Positions 2,865 to 29,233 of a DNA stretch of 30,587 nt are shown here, in pieces. How positions within the stretch are numbered: position 1 is the stretch's first letter; the number at the start of each line of letters is the position of its first letter. This stretch comes from a virus (Duplodnaviria > Caudoviricetes): positions 1-30,587 of the IMG/VR virus record IMGVR_UViG_3300020358_000015; one strand, 5' to 3'. The position numbers were made by a program, and so were the translations under genes. The notes under the pieces are model-generated. The model was not told the origin of the DNA. It saw only the letters and a list, made by a program, of their open reading frames with translations, and did not search any database.

Positions 2865-5800
2865 TCAGAATTCTAAATTTTTTAATTCATCTTCTAGTTT
2901 TTTTAATTTCCTACCACTAGTACTGTTTTTAGATTTTTTTCTAGCTCTAGATTTTTCAGCTTTTCTTTTTTTAAGCTCTTTTTCTCCATATATTATTTTA
3001 AAGTCTTCATCACTTAACTTTAAATCTTGTTGTTTAGAAGCTTTTATGTCAGACCAATTGTCAGCCATTAAATACCTTCTTATATCCTTATATAGTGGTA
3101 GTGGTACTCCTGTAAACTGACTAGCCTCTAAAGCAGTTCTTAGTGTAAGAAACTGAGCCGCTGCTCTGTCTGCAACTTTTTTATCTTTACTTCCCATTTT
3201 AGCAAGTAAATCACCCATTCTTAATAGACTACTAGCTTGTGGTGCTAAAGGCCCTGCGCCAATTCTTATTGCAGACTCTGCTACACCTTCTTTTTCTAGT
3301 TTTTGTTGATTAATTACACTAAAGATTAATGAATGTTCGTATGGATTATATCCTTTGCCATCTTTGTCTGACCATAAACCTAAAGATTCTCCATATTCCT
3401 CGTTTAATTTTTCAATACCTAAATTTATTGGAATCATAGGAAAATTACCTGAAGTACCTCTGGTTATCAAAGAAACTCCTGCACCTACTAATTGTCTAGT
3501 GCCTAACTCTTCGTAATCTATATCATCTTCATCATCAAGACCTAACACTCCATTAAACATAGAAGCTAGTGCTTTGTACATAACAACGTACATACTCATT
3601 CTAGTGATAACTCCTGCTAATGTAGCACCTCCTTTAATAGCACCCATTTCTCCTTGTCCAACCATAGAGGCAACAGCTTGTCTAGCCGTTACGAATTCAT
3701 TAATAGTAAACCTAGCCATATAAGAATTTATTGACTTATATAATATCACTCTTGCACCATCCTCATCTGAAAGTTGATTTTTTAATACACCACTAAATGG
3801 GTCATTAGATGTTGCAGCTTGAGTAACTTTAGCATCCGCTGCTCTCTTAGCGGCTTGAATAGCATCTGCATATTTAGTCATATACGCTTCGTCATTCTTT
3901 GATATCTTATCTGCGTCCATGTCTTGGCCAGTTTCCTGTTTAAAGACCCTAGCAAAAGTTCCAAAAAACAAAGGTCTTGAAATCATTTTATCAGGAGTAC
4001 TTAATAAATTGTCTGCTATAAACTCTGAACCATCTGCAAACTTTTTACCAAATCTACCTGCATATTTAAGGCTGCTTTTAATATTACTACCACTAGCTCG
4101 TTTACTTCCCTTTTTGTTTCTAACTACACCAGATTGTTCTGATTTAGAACCTCCTAGTATTTCTGAACCCCAATTTTTAGTTACAGTTGTAGACCCTACA
4201 TTTTCTGCAAAAGATAATCCGTTTTGCATTAAAGATAAGTTTGAATATTTTCCTAACCCCAATGCTAATTCTTTAGGAGCTGACATCAATCCAAATGTCA
4301 AGTTACTGCCAAGTTCTGCTACTGCTCTTGGAGCAGATGCTAGAGTACTATAATAACCAACTTTTCTTGCTATATCAAAATACTTACCTCCAATGACATC
4401 TGTACTAAAATTACTAGACAAAACATTTTCAATGGATTCATCATATGCTCTTGACAAAGAAACAGTTGCTTCTATTACTTCTTTTGTAGCATTTTCTTGT
4501 TCAGAAAGTCTGGTTAATTGAGTTAAAGCTTTTCTAGACGTTTGTATTTCATTAGTTAAATAATAATCCATACCTGTCATTCTTAAAGATCTTAATGCTG
4601 TAGCGACAGGATCAAAATCAATTGCTTTTGCTCCTGGAGTTCTGCTTATAGACGATTTAGATTCAGTACTTGTTTTTGCATTTACGTATTCTTTTTGTGA
4701 TATTAATTGTTTGTCTAACTTATCTTTTGTAGCATCAACTTTGTGATGAACATAATTATTTAATAAGTCTAGTTTGTTACCTCTTACAATAGTTGTGGCA
4801 TAAGCTTGCTTGTCACCCAAAGCACCATAAATTTCTTGCATTATACCTATAGCTTTCATTACTTGTGGAGATAAATTTTGTTTCATCTTCTTAGTTGTAA
4901 TGACTCCTCCTTCGCTATTCTTGGCTTTTATATCGAGTAATATATCTATATCAGCTTGAGTATAATTACTTGCTGTTTTAGAATCGTTAAAGTTTTCTAT
5001 AGTCTTGTCTATAAATTCATTTGCTTCTGCAACTCCTTTATTACCTACGTTTGATTCGCTTTCTAAAGCTAATAAATATGTTTGTATTTCAAACCTTCTT
5101 CTTACTGCAGGATTAGTTCCTTCTTTGTAAGTAGGAGCTATTATTTGCTCTACAGCATCAAGCTTGTCAGTCAGTCTTCCTGCCCAGGTTTTAAACTGAC
5201 TGTACTTTGTGGCTATTGGTTCAAAACTATTATTTCTTATAGTGTTGTTTTTATAGTTCCCAAAAGCATTATCTACTGCAGATAAAGGATTAGTCCTCAG
5301 CATCTCTAATGATGTTGTAGAATTCGCTCCTCTACTAACAGCATTTTTTAAACCTGCTTTTAAGGCAGCTTCTGCCCTGCTTTTAACCATAGCTATTTTA
5401 TTTTTAGTAGTTCCATATTTGTCTACTAAAGGACGCATGTCATAAGCCCTACTATTTATTGACTGACCAAGTTTGTTTGCAGCGTGTGTATAATGACCAT
5501 CATTAATGTTTTCAAGACTAACTTCTAATAAATCTAATTGCTTGCCTGTTAAGCCAATTAGGTCGCTGTCTTTAATGTTTTGAAACACTTGAACACCACC
5601 TGCTTCTTTAGTTGTATTGTCAAGACTTTTTAAACTTATACCCTTAGACCTAGATTTTATTTTTGTTATAACGGCCTGTCTATTCTCAGCAAATTTATTA
5701 GCAGATTCTACAAGCTCTTGATTTTCATCAGTCTCTGCTGAGTTAATTTTATCTATAAGCGTTTGTAATGTAAATGAATCTAGTTTATCTAAGTCGTTTT

Positions 5801-8800
5801 CAATAAACTTAGAATCTTCTAATATTAAAGTTTCACCATCTACATCTTCATTAATAATTTTATCTACTATAGTTTTTAAACTTTTAGTTTCTTTAGTTTC
5901 AGTCTCTTCATCTGTATCTTGAATGTTTTCATTATACAAAGAATCAGCCATGTTCTGAGAATCTATTACTAACTGATCATCTAACTTTACATTTTGTTTT
6001 TGCTTAAGAAGATTACTTAAGAAATCATTATAACCATCTATATTTTCACTAGTCAGATTTTTAGTTGGAGTATTTAGTATAGTCCCTAACCTAGATATAA
6101 GGTCTGGATTTAATCCATAGTTTCCTTTATTTAATCTTGTAGTCACTCTATTATTAAGCTTTTCTGCTTTCAAAATTTTTGCTGCGTAATCAGCATCATT
6201 AAATACTTTTTCCGAATACTCTATTAATTCTTGTACAGCTACCTGATTATCAAGATTAACACTATTAACTTTGTTTATAACAGCTTTGGTTTGTGCTGCA
6301 GTAATATTTCCCTTTTTACCTTTAGCATATGTTTTTATCTGTTTATTAAGGTTTTTCCTTTTAGTTTTTAAATCTTGCTTACCTTCTCTATTAGACTTGT
6401 TCCAAGATTTCCAAAATCTTTTACGTTGAGCATTTTCTCCTTCTTGTTTAGCTTTATCAGTTCTAGTGGTACTTTTTATAGATTGTAAAATACCTTTATA
6501 TGTATCAGCTGTTACAGTTTGACTATTTGTTTTAGCAATAGCTTCTACCTCAGCCTTAACCTCAGCTTCATTAGCAGCATATAAATCTATCTGCTCATTA
6601 GAATAATTTGTATCTCCATTAGCAATTTTAGTTGCTAAACGTCTTGTTTTTGATTTATCTTTCGGTAATTGTTTTCGTATTTCAGAAACTCTGTTATCTA
6701 TGGCTTCTTGATTTTCTGAATAAAATTGTTGAGCTTCTTCAGATAACTCTGTAGAAGAATCACTTTCAGCTATTCTATTTGAAAATGACTCAATCTTATT
6801 GTCAAGTTCATTGTTCACACTCATATCTTGCTCTACAGCAGAAGGTTCTGTTAACTGTTCAGCATCTGTCTGCGCAGTCGTGTCGCTAGTTGTATCGGTT
6901 TGCGTTTCACCTTCTTCGACTTTCGTTTCGGTAGTGACTTGCTGAGTGTCTCCTTCTCGAACTTGTTGCAGTCCCACTTCGGAGTCTCCCCCCTCTTCTT
7001 TGCTTGTTGAAGCATCTGGTAACACTTGCTCCTCTGTGCTTGGCTCTTGAATGGCATCCTTTTTTGTTTTAGTTTCACTTTCCTTATCTTTTTCTAGTGC
7101 AGCTTTATTAGCTGTTTCAACAGGAAAAGCTAAGGCTTGCTTTTCTTCCATTGATAACTTATTAAAGTTCTGTACAGCTCTGCTTCTAATTTCGCTGTTA
7201 TTTATTTTATAGTTTTTTTCACCTGCAGCTTCTTTTTCAGAAACTAACTCTTTTCCTGCATCATCCATCAGCTTTTGTTTTGATTTGTTGTTTACAAAAT
7301 CAAAGTTGCTGTTTTTAATTATATTGTTTTTTAAATCCTGAATCTGAACATCAAGATAAGGTGAGAAAACTTCAGAGACTTTTTTCTCTGATTCTAATTG
7401 TTTAATTTTATTTAAGTCACTCATCACCTGTAAAGATGTTTCAGCACTTAAATTTGATGGTAACCCATTAATGGTTTCATTAAATATTTTAACATCACTT
7501 ATTAAGTTATCAGCTTGCTGTTGAGTATAAATACCTCTCTTTACTTGTGAGTCTAAAAGTGATTGTGTTTTTTTTACATTACTAGCTAGTAAAGCTAAAG
7601 ATTTTATTTGGTCAATAGCTCTACCACCTTTTCCGGTCATACTAAAAGACCTAGTTGTATTTGCTTTTAAATCTCCTGCAACAGGCATTAAAATACCTGC
7701 AGTTAAAGATATTATAGAGGTGTTAGCAAAGTCATCTAAACTAATAGTCTCCTTCATTATTTGTTCACCTGCTTGTTCGTTTATGTCTGATCCAATGATA
7801 TAAGCTTGTGTGCCTTGTTGAATATTTTCTTGAAAAAACTCTTTTCCACCTTCAGTTAAATAGACAGGAACATTTCTTATAACTCCATCTAATGTTTTTC
7901 GTAAATAAGACCTAGACGCCTCAATTCCTGCTCCTTGTGCATATCTATTAATTGTATTCTCAACAATTTTTTGCTTTACTTTTGTTCCAAATATCTTATC
8001 CATAGCAACACGCTGCGTAGATATTGGAGCTGTTAATACACCTAATGCATATCCCTGAGTCCCTGCTTCAGAAGCTAATAAATCTGCTTCTTCATTTGAT
8101 AAACCTGCATCTAATGCTGACCTTCTAACCTGTGAGGATAGTGAGCTACCCATTAAAGTACCTTGAGCAATCATAGCTGATGCTGTTGTAGCTTTCATAG
8201 GTATTTTTTCCAACAAAGAAACAACTTGTCTACCTTGCTTATACTTAGATGCAAATGCAATTCCTCTTGCAGTTTGACCTGCAATTCCGACACCTCTAGT
8301 AAGAGCTATCTGAAGTAGCATATCAGATGCTACACCTGCAGTTGTTACTGCTGCCCCTGTGCCACTAAAACTACTTCCATCAACTCCATTTAATTGAACT
8401 TGTTTTCTTATTTCTTTTATTTGCTCAGGCTCTAATATGCTGCTTACTCTTATCTTTAAATCTAAATCATATATTTCTCCGTTGTCATCAATCATATACT
8501 CTCTACCATTTGCAAAAGCGCTTTTACCACTTGCATACGTATATCTAAGCATATCATCTCTGTTAAGTTCTGTTTCAGCTTGATTCATTTGAATTTCATC
8601 ACTAACAGATTCCATGCCTACCCAATCATAAGCCCACTCAGAAAAACTATTTATCCTATCATTTACAGAACGACCTCCCTGAGATCCTGCATCAAGCAAC
8701 CATTGAGTATTTGCACCACCTGCACCACCTTCTAATTCTCTTTGATAATTTTCTTTTGTTTCGGCTTTTTGTTTTTTTATTGCAAATGATAAAGTAGGAA

Positions 8801-10136
8801 ATTCTTCCTCCATATAATTGGAAAGCTCATCTATACCAATAGCAGGTTTTAAATCTATTTTATCTACATCACCGTTTAAAAAAGGATTTTCACCTTCATT
8901 CTTAATTTCGTATTCAAGAACTTGTTTGTTTACATTTTGTAAATCAACTTCAGCTAAATAGTTTTTTAGATAATCATACTTTAATTTATCAGCAGCCAAA
9001 GTTGGATTGTAGTTTCCAGAATAGTCGTAATATCTTCCATCTTCAGATATTGTTTCGTCTTTCAACAACTTAGCATATCTTTCTTTAAATCCGTTTTCTA
9101 TTAGATAACCATTAAATCCAGATATGTCAATTTTATTATCATCACCTGATAGCTTTTTTAAAGTTTGTTGGTTATACATTTCTGCTAAAGCATCATCTTC
9201 AAAACCTGTTGGTTCATAATCTGAGCTTTCAAAAATCTCAAACTCTTCATCAGTATAAGCTCCATCTTCTCTTTGAAATATAGATTGAAGCTTTTCAACA
9301 CTAGCATTAGGGCCTGCAAAATCTATAAGCCTTGCTGTTTCTGCATCAAAGTCTTTTACCTTTTTAATTATAGAATTTGTTTTTTCCTTTTCTTCAGGTG
9401 TATAATTAAAGTTTTTTACATCAGAATATTGGGAATAGTCTTTTTCCTTTTCTTGTTGTAGTTTTAATATATTATCTTCAGTTGACTTAACCGAAACCTC
9501 TTGAAGTTTTTCGATAGATTTTCTACCTCCTTTTAAAGCACTTGTTATATCTGCCTGCTTAATATACCCAATAGCTAATGCTTTTTGAATGTTTGGATCT
9601 GCCTCTATTTTTAACTTTAGTTCTTCATCTATAGATATGTTTTGTTGTCTCATTGCCCTAGCTCTATATGAACCAGGTAATTGAAATCCCTCTAAAGATT
9701 TATCGTTATTTTCTAATAATTTACTTAAATCTTCTTTTAAGAAACTCTCAACATTATCTTCTGGAAGTAAATTTTCTGTGTCTCCTGTTTGGTCTCCAAA
9801 GTTTAATTGAGATTCGTTAATTACACCCTCTTCAACTACTTCGTTTACTTCTAAAGAATCCGAAACACCATCTTGTACTTCTGTTTCGGTAGTAGATTCC
9901 GTAAGAACCTCTTCCCCATCTGAAGGAGTATCGACTTGATTTTTTTTTTCACCGTATCCTACTAATGTAGAAAAAGAATCAATGTCTTTTTTATATCCTT
10001 TAGATTGAACATACTCAAAATTGTCATTTAAAACTTCTTGGTCAGAACCTATTAGTTGTTCAAACTCTTCTATAGATTTACTATAACCTTTTGATGTAGC
10101 TCTATCGTATAAGTCTTGTAATACTTCTTTATCCAT
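2865..10136 (-). CDS. giant internal virion / DNA-ejection protein (2423 aa)
   Basis: Last and largest of three helical proteins after the tail genes, as in podovirus ejection modules; has Gly/Ala-rich hydrophobic segments, acidic linkers and a basic C-terminus. Confidence 0.7.
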   Translation of the reverse strand: MDKEVLQDLYDRATSKGYSKSIEEFEQLIGSDQEVLNDNFEYVQSKGYKKDIDSFSTLVGYGEKKNQVDTPSDGEEVLTESTTETEVQDGVSDSLEVNEVVEEGVINESQLNFGDQTGDTENLLPEDNVESFLKEDLSKLLENNDKSLEGFQLPGSYRARAMRQQNISIDEELKLKIEADPNIQKALAIGYIKQADITSALKGGRKSIEKLQEVSVKSTEDNILKLQQEKEKDYSQYSDVKNFNYTPEEKEKTNSIIKKVKDFDAETARLIDFAGPNASVEKLQSIFQREDGAYTDEEFEIFESSDYEPTGFEDDALAEMYNQQTLKKLSGDDNKIDISGFNGYLIENGFKERYAKLLKDETISEDGRYYDYSGNYNPTLAADKLKYDYLKNYLAEVDLQNVNKQVLEYEIKNEGENPFLNGDVDKIDLKPAIGIDELSNYMEEEFPTLSFAIKKQKAETKENYQRELEGGAGGANTQWLLDAGSQGGRSVNDRINSFSEWAYDWVGMESVSDEIQMNQAETELNRDDMLRYTYASGKSAFANGREYMIDDNGEIYDLDLKIRVSSILEPEQIKEIRKQVQLNGVDGSSFSGTGAAVTTAGVASDMLLQIALTRGVGIAGQTARGIAFASKYKQGRQVVSLLEKIPMKATTASAMIAQGTLMGSSLSSQVRRSALDAGLSNEEADLLASEAGTQGYALGVLTAPISTQRVAMDKIFGTKVKQKIVENTINRYAQGAGIEASRSYLRKTLDGVIRNVPVYLTEGGKEFFQENIQQGTQAYIIGSDINEQAGEQIMKETISLDDFANTSIISLTAGILMPVAGDLKANTTRSFSMTGKGGRAIDQIKSLALLASNVKKTQSLLDSQVKRGIYTQQQADNLISDVKIFNETINGLPSNLSAETSLQVMSDLNKIKQLESEKKVSEVFSPYLDVQIQDLKNNIIKNSNFDFVNNKSKQKLMDDAGKELVSEKEAAGEKNYKINNSEIRSRAVQNFNKLSMEEKQALAFPVETANKAALEKDKESETKTKKDAIQEPSTEEQVLPDASTSKEEGGDSEVGLQQVREGDTQQVTTETKVEEGETQTDTTSDTTAQTDAEQLTEPSAVEQDMSVNNELDNKIESFSNRIAESDSSTELSEEAQQFYSENQEAIDNRVSEIRKQLPKDKSKTRRLATKIANGDTNYSNEQIDLYAANEAEVKAEVEAIAKTNSQTVTADTYKGILQSIKSTTRTDKAKQEGENAQRKRFWKSWNKSNREGKQDLKTKRKNLNKQIKTYAKGKKGNITAAQTKAVINKVNSVNLDNQVAVQELIEYSEKVFNDADYAAKILKAEKLNNRVTTRLNKGNYGLNPDLISRLGTILNTPTKNLTSENIDGYNDFLSNLLKQKQNVKLDDQLVIDSQNMADSLYNENIQDTDEETETKETKSLKTIVDKIINEDVDGETLILEDSKFIENDLDKLDSFTLQTLIDKINSAETDENQELVESANKFAENRQAVITKIKSRSKGISLKSLDNTTKEAGGVQVFQNIKDSDLIGLTGKQLDLLEVSLENINDGHYTHAANKLGQSINSRAYDMRPLVDKYGTTKNKIAMVKSRAEAALKAGLKNAVSRGANSTTSLEMLRTNPLSAVDNAFGNYKNNTIRNNSFEPIATKYSQFKTWAGRLTDKLDAVEQIIAPTYKEGTNPAVRRRFEIQTYLLALESESNVGNKGVAEANEFIDKTIENFNDSKTASNYTQADIDILLDIKAKNSEGGVITTKKMKQNLSPQVMKAIGIMQEIYGALGDKQAYATTIVRGNKLDLLNNYVHHKVDATKDKLDKQLISQKEYVNAKTSTESKSSISRTPGAKAIDFDPVATALRSLRMTGMDYYLTNEIQTSRKALTQLTRLSEQENATKEVIEATVSLSRAYDESIENVLSSNFSTDVIGGKYFDIARKVGYYSTLASAPRAVAELGSNLTFGLMSAPKELALGLGKYSNLSLMQNGLSFAENVGSTTVTKNWGSEILGGSKSEQSGVVRNKKGSKRASGSNIKSSLKYAGRFGKKFADGSEFIADNLLSTPDKMISRPLFFGTFARVFKQETGQDMDADKISKNDEAYMTKYADAIQAAKRAADAKVTQAATSNDPFSGVLKNQLSDEDGARVILYKSINSYMARFTINEFVTARQAVASMVGQGEMGAIKGGATLAGVITRMSMYVVMYKALASMFNGVLGLDDEDDIDYEELGTRQLVGAGVSLITRGTSGNFPMIPINLGIEKLNEEYGESLGLWSDKDGKGYNPYEHSLIFSVINQQKLEKEGVAESAIRIGAGPLAPQASSLLRMGDLLAKMGSKDKKVADRAAAQFLTLRTALEASQFTGVPLPLYKDIRRYLMADNWSDIKASKQQDLKLSDEDFKIIYGEKELKKRKAEKSRARKKSKNSTSGRKLKKLEDELKNLEF
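6851..7057 (-). CDS. nested (overprinted, +1 frame) small basic protein MPFKSQAQRSKCYQMLQQAKKRGETPKWDCNKFEKETLSKSLPKRK... (68 aa)
   Basis: ATG preceded by taaaacaaaaaagg; local GC about 50% versus about 30% in flanks; the N-terminus resembles small stand-alone phage proteins beginning MPFKS-x-x-Q (recognition from memory). Confidence 0.65.
   Translation of the reverse strand: MPFKSQAQRSKCYQMLQQAKKRGETPKWDCNKFEKETLSKSLPKRKSKKVKRKPIQLATRLRRQMLNS
9832..9950 (-). other. candidate programmed -1 frameshift / transcriptional slippage site (G-A10-T) and trans-frame ORF
   Basis: A10 at 9949-9940; the -1 frame has TGA immediately before the run, then 36 open codons with no ATG, ending at TGA 9834-9832. 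Confidence 0.55.
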
Positions 10137-10142
10137 TATGTT

Positions 10143-12104
10143 CTATTTGTTTTCGTAATCGACTCCTCCTGATACTGTACCTGATGGCTTTTCTCCTCCT
10201 GATACTGTACCTGATGGCTTTCCTCCTCTTAAGACTATATCCATATTTTTTTGAAGCCATGTGTGATTTTCACTGCTTGATTGCGCTGGGCTTTTGTAAT
10301 CTACACTATCTACTGTGATTACATATCTGTCATTAGGGCCACTTTCATCTGAATGACTTACTTGTATATTTGAGTCAATATCATATTCTTTTATGGCTTT
10401 TTGGATTATAGTATTTGCTATACCAGTAACCTCATCTTCGTCAGGATTATTTTCTACTGCAGTAGCAAAAACTTCAGCTGCAGTACCTGCTCTTTTTATA
10501 CCATTTTTTTCTGAAACTCCTAAATTAAAAGCACCTAAGCCTCCATACTTTTTTGTTATGCTTTTATATGAAGATACTTTACCTTTTGCTTTTTTATCAG
10601 TACCTTTTAATTTAGATTTATCAAGATATTTTTGAGCTTTTAATTGTAATTTTGCTGCAATTTGCTTACCTACATCTACACCTAGACCTGTTAATGGTAT
10701 AGGAGCCATTCTGTTTCCATCAGGATCTATAAACACTAATATCATATTATCTTTTTTACCTGTAATATCATAACTTGATACAAATTTTGGGTTTTCATCT
10801 ACTAAAGCGTTTAAACTTGATACGTCACCTGTAGCTGCAAGGTCGACAAGGTCTACTGTTGATTGATAGTCTTCCGATTTATCTCCTGATTCATTAGGCC
10901 TAAATGTAGTAGTCTTGTCTCTTCCTGTTATCTTTCTTTGTAATCCTGAGTATATCCCTGATTTAAATATTCTTATAGAAGCTATCTTTGCTTCATCTGT
11001 TTCTTCACCCATAAATAGAGTACTCATAGGGTCTAATGTAGCCGTTACGTATTTATTATATTTCCCTTGCAACATCTCTCCAGTACTAGGGTCTATGTAC
11101 TCGTAAGAAATCTGTTCTTTTAAATCAACACCATCAGCTTTTAATCCTGCAACCTCGTTAGGCATAACAGGTATTTGTTCCTTACCGGGAGGCATATTAT
11201 CCATTAAAATACTCATTCTTTGTTCTACAGTAGCTGTCGCTGCCCCTGTTCCTGCATTAATGAGTCTTTCTATATTTCGGTTATTTCTAGCGTCATCAAC
11301 AACTATTCCTGTATACCCAGCTGAAGTTTTTATCACTTCAAAAGCTTTACTTAAAGCTGTATCCTTATCCAATGCTTCGTTTATACTATCGTTCATATAA
11401 ACTCTAGGTGATTTTTGATTCTTACCTTTTAAAATAGTTGAAGCACCAATTCCTGACATAGTAGGGTCTATAATTGGATTACCGTCGTTATCTAAATCTA
11501 ATTCTCTAGTGTTTGTCTTTGTGTTTATTTTTGTTTTATAAAGATTCATATTAAGACTTCCATCCTCACTACTTAAAATCTTATATAAATTAGGATTACC
11601 TAAAGTAGTTTGAAACTTTTGTATAGCTGACTGAAAAGCTCCAGCTGTTGGTTTTACATAGTTTCCATTTGCATCTGTGTATCCCTGTGCTTCTTTTAAT
11701 GACTGCTGAAAGTTAGCATCATAGTCTTTTAGGTATGAAGAAAGGGTGTCGTAACTTGTACTTGCATTTTGCCTAAATATAAGATTGTCTGTAGGGCTTT
11801 GCATTCCTTTTTCAACCATCTTTACATTATCATACAATCTTTCTTGAGTGCTTCTTAAAGCTTCTAAAATAGCAGCGTCTACAGTTTTATTACCTGTCAT
11901 TCGCTCGCTTGCTAACTTTTTCGAGTCTTGATAAGCTTTAGCTGTATCTGTTTTTAGCTTTATCTCAGCGTCATCTATACCTTTTTTCCAAGAGGCAACA
12001 TCTTTCATCCCCTTGCTTATAGCGGATAGAGTAGAAGTTGGGTCACTTACACCTGTGAAACCTTTATCTAATGCAATTCTAGTAGCGTCTAATTTATTAC
12101 CCAT
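10143..12104 (-). CDS. internal virion / ejection protein (653 aa)
   Basis: Position between the 323-aa and 2423-aa proteins; helical N-terminal region. Confidence 0.6.
   Translation of the reverse strand: MGNKLDATRIALDKGFTGVSDPTSTLSAISKGMKDVASWKKGIDDAEIKLKTDTAKAYQDSKKLASERMTGNKTVDAAILEALRSTQERLYDNVKMVEKGMQSPTDNLIFRQNASTSYDTLSSYLKDYDANFQQSLKEAQGYTDANGNYVKPTAGAFQSAIQKFQTTLGNPNLYKILSSEDGSLNMNLYKTKINTKTNTRELDLDNDGNPIIDPTMSGIGASTILKGKNQKSPRVYMNDSINEALDKDTALSKAFEVIKTSAGYTGIVVDDARNNRNIERLINAGTGAATATVEQRMSILMDNMPPGKEQIPVMPNEVAGLKADGVDLKEQISYEYIDPSTGEMLQGKYNKYVTATLDPMSTLFMGEETDEAKIASIRIFKSGIYSGLQRKITGRDKTTTFRPNESGDKSEDYQSTVDLVDLAATGDVSSLNALVDENPKFVSSYDITGKKDNMILVFIDPDGNRMAPIPLTGLGVDVGKQIAAKLQLKAQKYLDKSKLKGTDKKAKGKVSSYKSITKKYGGLGAFNLGVSEKNGIKRAGTAAEVFATAVENNPDEDEVTGIANTIIQKAIKEYDIDSNIQVSHSDESGPNDRYVITVDSVDYKSPAQSSSENHTWLQKNMDIVLRGGKPSGTVSGGEKPSGTVSGGVDYENK
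10163..10228. repeat. 30-bp in-frame tandem repeat (about 2.2 copies) encoding KPSGTVSGG(E)
   Basis: ctcctcctgatactgtacctgatggcttt(t/c) twice, followed by ctcctc. Confidence 0.95.
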
Positions 12105-20993: not shown

Positions 20994-21022
20994 CAAATAT
21001 ACAAAAAAAAAGAGGCTTCAAA
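20994..21022 (-). promoter_or_regulatory. Bacteroidota promoter (TTTG -33 ... TATATTTG -7) for the tail operon
   Basis: TATATTTG at 21001-20994; TTTG at 21022-21019 with a 17-nt spacer. Confidence 0.65.
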
Positions 21023-21035
21023 ATTTGAAGCCTCT
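21003..21035 (-). terminator. intrinsic terminator
   Basis: Perfect inverted repeat agaggcttcaaa/tttgaagcctct followed by a T-run on the - strand. Confidence 0.85.
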
Positions 21036-26986: not shown

Positions 26987-29233
26987 TTACTTTATGATTT
27001 GACTATAATTGCCTTTATTGTCGTATTTAGCAAAGTTAAGTTTTATTTTTGATTTTTTTTTAACAGGTTGATATAGGCTTTTTTGATTTGCCATAATTGC
27101 TAATCCTGAACTAATAGAAGCATCAAATTTAGTTCTATTGTTTATATTAAATCTAGCCCAATCTTCAAGAGTTCTTGTAAAATACATTGAACCCATAATA
27201 TCATTATCTCTAAAAGTCTCTAATAAATCTAATCCAACGTATTTTTCAATGTAAGATTCTATTGCAGCAGCATGAGCTTGCTTTATATCTTCTGAACTAT
27301 TTGGTATTCCACCAAGTTCTTTTTCTGTTTTTGAAAGTTTATTATAGATTTTATCCGGTCTATTAATACTATAACCTCTATATCCTCTATTTTTAAAATG
27401 ATATAATAACCTTGGTTTGTTATTCTCTATAAGTATTGGCATTCCATAAAAAACACAAGCCATTAATACTTCTTCAAAAAATATTTCTGCAGTCTGTGGT
27501 CTAGCAACATACTCTAAAAAAAACTCATTAGAAGGCCCCTCATCCATATGAAATTTAGTCATTCCATGTAAAGCGCCATTAGAAGCACCTCCACCAACTG
27601 TTCCTGAAATATCATAACTGTCACAACCAAACGCACCCATGTGTTGATTTCCGGGATGAAATACTCCATTTTTTGTGTGCTTATTATTTTGTAAAAGTTT
27701 ATTTGGAGTCCAAGACACTACAAACCTACCTCTATTATTAGGAGTCCAAATTACTTGAGTATCTTTTATTCCATCTTTCCATGAAAATGAACCTCTAGTT
27801 ATAAACCTGTCTTTTATTAAAGAATCATTGTAATCAATTTGCTGATATATTTTAGTAAGATTAAACAAAGACTCTTTGCTTTCATCTCTAAACGCATGAG
27901 ATTCTGTTCTAGGAAACTGTCTGTAAAATTCATTTAATGCGTCAGGATCACTTTTTAAACTATCAACTTCAGCTTCCCAATAGTCAATAGCACCTTGCTT
28001 TATAAATTCCCCATCAATTCCTAGAATTGGTTCGTCAGGTGTGTAAAAAACAGGCATTCCATGTATATCAATAAAACCTTCCATATTGTATTCCATAGGA
28101 ATAAATAAACTATACAAACCACTTTTAGTTTGACCGTTACGATTTCTTTTATCTACTTTAGAATCAAAATATAATTTTTTACCATTTCCACCACCTTTTT
28201 CTAATGCATTGGCAGTAGAACCCATCATACACTTTCCAATAACCTTACTACCTAAACGTAAACAAGTTTTAGTAACTCTCCAGTTGTTTAATATGTTATT
28301 TGGCTTTTCCCATTTTTTAGATTCATCATGAATGAGTAATTTTAACTTTTCCCCATCATAACTATTGTCTCCTGTATTTTTCCAGTCAATAGAAGTATCT
28401 AATCCCTCAACAATATCCTCATCTTCTAAATACATATTCTTTTTAGTAATTTTAGACGCAGGAACTCTAAAAGCTAATTCTGTTTTAGGTTTATCCATTC
28501 CATCTTGCACCGGTTTAAAAAAGAAAGGATAATTATTCACTATTGGAACAACCTTATCTGTGAACATTTTTTTAGCATCTGCTCCTGTTTTAGAAAGTAT
28601 TCCAAGCCTTGCGTCTTTACTAATTGTACCTATATTAGCCGACTCTTCACTAGCCATATAAGAAAATCCAGAACGCCTAATCTTTAAGTAATCTTGACCA
28701 AAACTTCTTTTGTCTGCTTTGCAAGCTTCCCAATGTAAATAAAAAACTCTATTAGCATCTCTGTAATCAGGAAGACCTATATCTATTTTAGTCCATTGTA
28801 TGTACATATAATGTGAACCTGTAATATAAGTCTCAACACCATTATTTAAAAACCAAAAACCTTCGTCTCTTCTATCAAATTCTTGCTCAATATAATCTAC
28901 CCATTCATTTTTAAATGCTGATGGTGCGTCATGCCATTGGAATATAGATTTTATTTTTTGTAGTGTTTTAGGATAATCAAAAGCCTCCCAATATTGTTCA
29001 GATTTTGTTTTACTTCGGGAATAAATTTTACTTGTAGGCTTAGGAAGTGCTATTCTCAAGCCATCTATTTCAATTATATCTTGAATTTGGCCTGATTTTG
29101 AAATTACTATAAAATCATACTTTTCATTATAACCGTATTCCCAAGCTTTTGCTTTGTTTTTACTGATTATAATTGTTTTTGGAATAAAATCTTTTAAATG
29201 CTTTATTAAGCTATTTTGATCTTCGTTCTGCAA
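26987..29233 (-). CDS. terL: terminase large subunit (748 aa)
   Basis: Walker A-like KIRRSGFS, Walker B LLIHDE, coupling motif MGST, nuclease motifs FGCDSYD and KFDASISSGLA. Confidence 0.9.
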   Translation of the reverse strand: MQNEDQNSLIKHLKDFIPKTIIISKNKAKAWEYGYNEKYDFIVISKSGQIQDIIEIDGLRIALPKPTSKIYSRSKTKSEQYWEAFDYPKTLQKIKSIFQWHDAPSAFKNEWVDYIEQEFDRRDEGFWFLNNGVETYITGSHYMYIQWTKIDIGLPDYRDANRVFYLHWEACKADKRSFGQDYLKIRRSGFSYMASEESANIGTISKDARLGILSKTGADAKKMFTDKVVPIVNNYPFFFKPVQDGMDKPKTELAFRVPASKITKKNMYLEDEDIVEGLDTSIDWKNTGDNSYDGEKLKLLIHDESKKWEKPNNILNNWRVTKTCLRLGSKVIGKCMMGSTANALEKGGGNGKKLYFDSKVDKRNRNGQTKSGLYSLFIPMEYNMEGFIDIHGMPVFYTPDEPILGIDGEFIKQGAIDYWEAEVDSLKSDPDALNEFYRQFPRTESHAFRDESKESLFNLTKIYQQIDYNDSLIKDRFITRGSFSWKDGIKDTQVIWTPNNRGRFVVSWTPNKLLQNNKHTKNGVFHPGNQHMGAFGCDSYDISGTVGGGASNGALHGMTKFHMDEGPSNEFFLEYVARPQTAEIFFEEVLMACVFYGMPILIENNKPRLLYHFKNRGYRGYSINRPDKIYNKLSKTEKELGGIPNSSEDIKQAHAAAIESYIEKYVGLDLLETFRDNDIMGSMYFTRTLEDWARFNINNRTKFDASISSGLAIMANQKSLYQPVKKKSKIKLNFAKYDNKGNYSQIIK
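27031..27038 (-). promoter_or_regulatory. Bacteroidota -7 element TAACTTTG(C) inside the terL 3' end, upstream of portal
   Basis: Exact TAnnTTTG 44 nt before the portal ATG, overlapping codons L-N-F-A. Confidence 0.5.

Follow-up and report, generated by a model that had tools for sequence, protein, structure and literature searches.

Does a run of ten A residues near the start of a giant phage gene divide its expression between two proteins with a common beginning? The window analysed here, a whole stretch of 30,587 nucleotides from a phage genome (68% A+T), carries on its minus strand GroES-like, terminase, portal and virion genes, the last of them a gene of 2423 codons. The first-pass annotation had proposed that a -1 slip at the run joins one N-terminal module either to the giant protein or to a short cationic and aromatic tail. 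Two genes frame the question:

2865 to 10136, minus strand: the giant gene, 2423 aa, final gene of the virion module
10143 to 12104, minus strand: the upstream gene, 653 aa, whose C-terminal tip (VDYENK) co-varies with module type

The giant gene belongs to phrog_32588, for which no function is annotated, and gave no tblastn match in the annotated phage collection, including the giants of Elemo, phi38:1 and the Pachyviridae. Gene order is the same as in Elemo, phi38:1 and phi18:3, where the giants are annotated as structural; for the syntenic giant of phi18:3, gp123, that annotation comes from MS/MS. Its position, its size and the structural annotation of the syntenic genes make the window's giant a likely internal, ejected virion protein, and none of the 20 window genes matched a tail chaperone or tape-measure protein. 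Among isolates, phages of Flavobacterium and Cellulophaga come nearest (terminase 45% to Elemovirus, portal 28-45%), and we therefore infer a host among the Flavobacteriaceae. A GroES-like gene precedes the terminase gene in the same order as in Elemovirus, Pervagoviridae and Pachyviridae, groups that have in common a portal and a cpn10-like gene in the virion module, as an excerpt of PMC8776804 describes; by its portal (28-45%) and GroES-like gene the window fits these groups, in a comparison covering 30.6 kb of genome. The window sequence occurs in marine metagenomes, and the search for prophage copies in GTDB returned a single contig, from a Lutibacter bin, without the 5' end. Between the genes for proteins of 258 and 231 aa lies a terminator-like element, a GC-rich inverted repeat followed by T9 on the minus strand (21003-21035).

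The run and the frames overlapping it are arranged as follows:

9951 to 10136, minus strand: N-terminal module, 62 codons, common to both predicted products, with two predicted helix-loop-helix repeats
9949 to 9951, minus strand: TGA of the -1 frame immediately before the run; 40 of 99 loci have TG before the run, which amounts to nearly all phase-1 runs
9940 to 9949, minus strand: A10 slip site (G AA AAA AAA AA T); A9-A10 in 99 of 100 informative distinct homologues
9832 to 9948, minus strand: overlapping -1 ORF of 38 codons plus TGA, encoding an Arg/Gly/aromatic tail and with signs of codon selection
9851 to 9949, minus strand: +1 frame with 32 open codons, a likely by-product

As the first-pass annotation had read it, the A10 run occupies codons 63-66 (codons 62-66 are GGT GAA AAA AAA AAT), and it is the longest A/T run of the window. 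The heptamers A_AAA_AAA and A_AAA_AAT stand in register at codons 64 and 65, and because the TGA lies directly 5' of the run, the -1 frame can be entered solely through the run. Beyond it, 38 -1 codons stay open (KKK and the tail already noted, 36 if counted from the last K) up to the TGA at 9832-9834, so that 63 + 38 codons give the expected product of 101 aa; landmarks of the tail on the minus strand are a YG pair at 9903-9898 and an invariant Gly at 9861-9859. The nine junction codons that avoid a final T are as had been listed, and a tenth, TTA at codon 95, fits as well. By synonymous resampling, the chance of at least 38 open -1 codons is P = 0.0005-0.0006. Intervals of the -1 frame reach 37 codons 9 times in 1315 among the 20 window genes, two of the nine being longer and in the giant gene itself (53 and 44 codons, the former beginning at another slippery heptamer), and the evidence of the window alone is for this reason only suggestive. 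At giant codons 1023-1076 (window 6910-7069) a second heptamer, A_AAA_AAG, is followed by 52 open -1 codons, in a region that differs between relatives. The A10 is not an assembly error, as DNA contigs of runs X3, X5, X7, X8 and X16 contain no indel; an RNA-library contig over the site (X20, depth 3) has A10 only, contigs being a form of data that drops rare variants. The +1 frame is open too, a point overlooked in the earlier reading. Elsewhere in the window, an A9 lies in the terminase gene (27053-27061), about 25 codons before its stop, where both other frames soon close.

Two sets of homologous loci, with the giants picked without using the run, carry an A9-A10 run in 99 of 100 informative distinct cases, just after a variable N-terminal module. 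The first set was reached through a neighbouring 136-aa gene: of 80 loci, 19 end before the giant, and the other 61 reduce to 49 distinct 5' ends, every one with exactly A10 (49/49). The second was reached through the C-terminal part of the giant, using an alignment of 20 distant giants; it comprises 65 loci, six without the 5' end, and the remaining 59 reduce to 52 distinct loci, or 51 informative ones once L190, cut at its 5' end, is set aside, with A9 or A10 in 50. The exception, L192 (9695-10300), is a full-length giant gene with neither run nor tail, and the proteins P0060 and P0061 contain no KKK; from these three cases, the motif can be lost. A first pattern, biased because it included the run, had given 56 loci and is not counted; of its 42 distinct loci, 41 lay where a long ORF begins.

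At the protein level, 75 of 77 full-length proteins (27-100% identity, not counting five truncated at the N-terminus) have KK[KN] at residues 31-150, after the module; among background windows the motif appears in 125 of 1564. The rest of the giant genes, 463,806 nt in total, contains A9 twice and A10 never. The reverse test, in which patterns for the tail DNA without the run were searched, found A≥9 upstream of all 28 viral and all 56 metagenome matches, at a distance of 5-44 nt. Of the metagenome matches, 53 are in frame, ten of them starting at GTG (seven inspected, three duplicates); the three out-of-frame contigs have A9 (L289), A12 (L300) and A11 (L307). In-frame near-twins of these contigs exist (L264, L282), and the out-of-frame forms may be either errors or slipped RNA. 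The -1 frame stays open for 19-45 codons in 94 distinct loci, with a mean of 32.7 against 13.2 expected. Taken as a group, then, the homologues keep both the run and the open frame, and the outcomes examined that speak against the site (loss, early stops, assembly error) were absent. The homologues lend strong support to a conserved recoding site from which a short second product would come, and the first-pass proposal of one module leading into either a giant or a short cationic and aromatic tail is supported.

The site is also present in isolated phages, in gp90 of Elemo, gp101 of phi38:1 and gp74 of Gundel. Elemovirus, Pervagoviridae and Pachyviridae (Gundel, phi13:2, phi18:3, phi19:3 and phi46:3) have A9-A10 and an open Arg/aromatic frame in the giant; in phi38:1 the run in gp101 is the only one of nine or more in 72.5 kb, and the Manatee Spring genome has an A11, the only such run there. 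With no tblastn match between the giants, the link to these isolates rests on gene order and 5' anatomy. The -1 tail of Elemo (L214:20734-20871) is 46 aa long and seems to contain the Gly/aromatic motif twice. In four Pachyviridae records the run is A9: phi13:2 (L217:28119-28450), phi19:3 (L219:26056-26450), phi18:3 (L220:5310-5700) and phi46:3 (L221:6119-6500). There it separates the module, which the records give as a small gene, from the giant, which they start at a TTG; Gundel belongs to the same family, and its A10 is in frame. In these records the A9 is either miscalled or natural, and a natural A9 would need an added A (+1) to make the giant; a pattern search for independent Baltivirus sequences returned only four contigs, which correspond to the four known records. 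None of the isolate records annotates slippage. In the crAss-like phi14:2 and crAss001, no A run exceeds 7 in nine cargo genes, one of which was covered over its 5' 602 codons.

Pairwise differences indicate what the overlap encodes. In 35 disjoint pairs, the overlap differs at 61, 105 and 104 sites at 0-frame positions 1, 2 and 3, compared with 124, 63 and 267 (24 pairs) and 95, 53 and 202 (21 pairs) in the two flanks. The share of differences that is synonymous in the -1 frame is 37% in the overlap against 6% and 5% in the flanks (Fisher P below 1e-10), with codons threaded on the 0-frame protein, a bias that runs against the -1 frame. On this sequence evidence, the -1 frame is under selection as a protein. 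R, G, F, S and Y abound in the tails, which have hardly any D, E, P or Q, and a YG block is found in 84 of 94 by a pattern written after viewing them. When the tail of the window was aligned with 81 of the 89 distinct tails (82 in all, leaving out seven with long linkers and one duplicate), the alignment had one invariant Gly and a YG at least 90% conserved, while under the invariant Gly the 0-frame residue varies among E, V, A, G and D. We also considered the +1 frame as a selected product and rejected it: in 94 homologues it spans a scattered 10-71 codons (34 against 19 expected; P<0.05 in 17 of 94), its third codon position varies least in the overlap, and codon signal is absent.

The module itself turns out to be replaceable, as part of the following feature:

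9952 to 10195, no strand assigned: exchangeable cassette made of the last ~17 codons of the upstream gene, a spacer and the N-terminal module, ending at TG-A10

In runs X8 and X16, from two studies, both flanks match the window and 9952-10195 is replaced by 259 other letters; run X5 holds two versions that join at 9951. The cassette boundary thus falls at the A10 run, and since the tip of the upstream gene and the module are replaced together up to that boundary, they travel as a cassette. The single N-terminal module of 65 aa in the first-pass annotation is indeed common to both predicted products; it has 62 codons, though, and is one of many types of a swappable unit. Module type tracks the tip of the upstream gene in near and distant sets alike (junctions of L070-L213), the pairing of six types holding in 11/11, 11/11, 10/11, 6/6, 5/5 and 13/17 cases by patterns written after viewing. 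Our preferred reading is that tip and module form a docking pair; plain linkage can also produce such co-variation. A predicted complex of the module with the last 32 residues of the upstream protein scored 0.24 (mark 0.32) and is not counted as evidence. Before the tip of the upstream gene, a linker has a tandem duplication of about 30 nt (10163-10222, KPSGTVSGG twice).

Structure prediction folds the module into four helices (AF2 pLDDT 90, with 55 of 90 modules in the alignment) and the tail into a beta-meander of three antiparallel strands (AF2 pLDDT 79), of which the shortest tails retain only the last hairpin. Products predicted for the homologues have 67-153 aa (median 98) and a median tail charge of +9. 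The charge flip that had been noted in the window is real, the tail carrying +12 against -9 for the overlapping 0-frame stretch, yet it describes the tail incompletely, which is also sequence-specific, with its predicted beta-meander, YG and invariant Gly. Tail relatives were sought in Pfam, PDB sequences, the ESM Atlas and Foldseek PDB with no match; the module fold had no match in the PDB and only unnamed viral proteins in BFVD. The tail may resemble AP2-type DNA-binding sheets or beta-hairpin membrane peptides, and it may be, as first suggested, that the giant is an ejection protein and that the tail binds DNA or membranes. The invariant glycines suggest instead that a tight, specific contact is more likely than generic membrane or DNA binding.

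Several proteins resemble parts of this arrangement. P0114 (529 aa) and P0115 (462 aa) have a lipoprotein-like signal peptide and 3-4 tandem modules with no KKK, and are possibly cellular relatives of the module domain. P0100, from a single contig, has the module joined straight to the tail with no KKK and may represent a deletion or a short gene that stands alone. P0097 looks like a chimera, its N-terminus being unrelated.

How might the slip occur? The 99 tabulated loci have runs of four classes, A10 in phase 2 (44), A10 in phase 1 (41), A9 in phase 0 (13) and A10 in phase 0 (1), and none of seven or eight A. On a tree of the neighbour proteins (89 rows) the run switches class 12 times, part of these changes probably by recombination. 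AAG makes up 39% of the Lys codons in the giant genes, yet it never interrupts the run. A conserved hairpin was not found (mean z -0.25 over 94 loci; z<-2 in 10/94 against 4/94 in the control), nor was an excess of Shine-Dalgarno-like stimulators (20 against 19 of 94). Bacterial RNA polymerase slips efficiently in vivo at nine As or Ts, according to an excerpt of PMC5009743, and the runs here have both an A/T tract of at least nine and a length kept across codon phases. Runs in three phases, at least nine A, no AAG and no conserved stimulator together lead us to favour polymerase slippage over ribosomal -1 shifting, with a confidence that stops well short of certainty; the two may act together. 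In a slippage model, the polymerase would add an extra A at A10 in a share of transcripts, and the 62-residue N-terminal module would then begin two proteins, the giant of 2423 aa and a predicted one of 101 aa. Both would enter the virion or procapsid, where the module would dock on the 653-aa protein at its C-terminal tip; the short form would fill spare docking sites and, by its Gly/aromatic face, link the core to a fixed partner, and slippage would also lower the copy number of the giant. We accordingly propose that the short protein may be an adaptor, with the giant's dock and a small anchor in place of the cargo, in a ratio set by slippage. This account as a whole, from slip site to giant plus 101-aa adaptor, seems to us the probable one. 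The joint loss of run and tail in L192 counts for it; against it, the changes of phase may reflect cassette exchange rather than independent mutation.

The same 101-aa product could come from an unaltered mRNA by -1 frameshifting or sliding on the consecutive AAA codons; ribosomes slide on poly-AAA. An in-register A_AAA_AAA heptamer is present in all phases, which makes ribosomal shifting always possible, solely the -1 frame is under selection, and phages do use low-level -1 shifting free of stimulators, as in lambda G-T (excerpt of PMC5009743). A heptamer, however, requires seven A residues, and no run is shorter than nine; A_AAA_AAG, the E. coli dnaX frameshift site (excerpt of PMC1851650), is never used despite common AAG; and neither a conserved hairpin nor a Shine-Dalgarno-like element accompanies the site. 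We regard this route as possible but doubtful.

Less is to be said for readings that dispense with recoding. The region could owe its conservation to a non-coding role in DNA or RNA (anchor for recombination of the cassette, binding site or structure) with the -1 frame as a by-product, and a shared block at the cassette boundary would help exchange; we think this improbable, given that variation tracks the wobble of the -1 codons while the 0-frame residue changes, that the spacing from run to motif is variable (5 to 44 nt and more) and that conserved structure is absent. Even less probable is a DNA-level phase-variation switch, with progeny genomes differing in run length, to which the A9, A11 and A12 of three metagenome contigs, the A9 of four Cellulophaga phage records and 26 called proteins ending in the tail would point. 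These called fusions (20 of 26 looked up, giving 19 singletons and one cluster of 6) are not counted as support, since miscalling of the homopolymer may have produced them. A genome with the A run out of frame would be unable to make the giant; the frame is kept in 53 of 56 metagenome contigs and in every IMG/VR locus examined from environmental contigs. Five DNA runs have no indel, and the rare exceptions are explained by miscalled homopolymers. Chance or an artefact of assembly, for which the equally long intervals of the window (9/1315) might be cited, is contradicted by the homologue tests and by the agreement of contigs from several runs, and we give it almost no weight.

Polymerase slippage, the mechanism we favour, has several precedents, compared here through excerpts of the cited sources. 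Thermus thermophilus dnaX uses transcriptional slippage at a bare homopolymer of nine to make a full-length and a short product with a common N-terminus (PMC5009743); here the gene is a phage gene and the short product would gain a tail of 19-45 residues under selection. In the Shigella genes spa13, spa33 and mxiA, slippage determines the proportions of the products of a protein-delivery machine (type III secretion), with truncated products in some cases (PMC5009743); these are bacterial plasmid genes with no swappable module, and we liken them by mechanism only. Potyvirus P3N-PIPO, too, has a short ORF within a long one, a single added A and a short fusion sharing its N-terminus (PMC5009743), although there an RNA virus and a viral polymerase are involved and here a dsDNA phage and, probably, the RNA polymerase of the host. 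Lambda gpG/gpGT and T7/T3 gp10A/B share with the present case one gene, two products in a set ratio, virion assembly and a -1 shift (PMC5009743, PMC10274946), but their shift lies close to the gene's 3' end and extends the product. At codon 63-66 of 2423 in another class of gene, the shift would truncate it, and the distinction that the first-pass annotation drew from the tail-assembly-chaperone G-GT frameshift stands on this position and the shorter product. Compared with the E. coli dnaX-type -1 frameshift, the heptamer is in register; a conserved stem-loop and Shine-Dalgarno-like stimulator are absent. The literature covered by our searches contains no description of the slip site, and PMC12014285 has no relevant term.

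If the favoured account is true, an unannotated protein would be added to a widespread group of phages, and phages would have a new class of recoding, located where an internal virion gene begins and probably acting in transcription; in the known dsDNA-phage cases compared here, it is the ribosome that extends the product of a tail or capsid gene. The annotations of four Pachyviridae may need correcting. Since cultured phage-host pairs (Elemo, phi38:1) carry the site, both the mechanism and the control of core-protein copy number are directly testable. More tentatively, a group of Flavobacteria podophages might build its ejected core by slippage, from a giant cargo and an adaptor that combines a swappable lock-and-key module, matched to the tip of the upstream protein, with a new beta-meander anchor, and in the Baltivirus-type A9 genomes the giant itself might depend on slippage.
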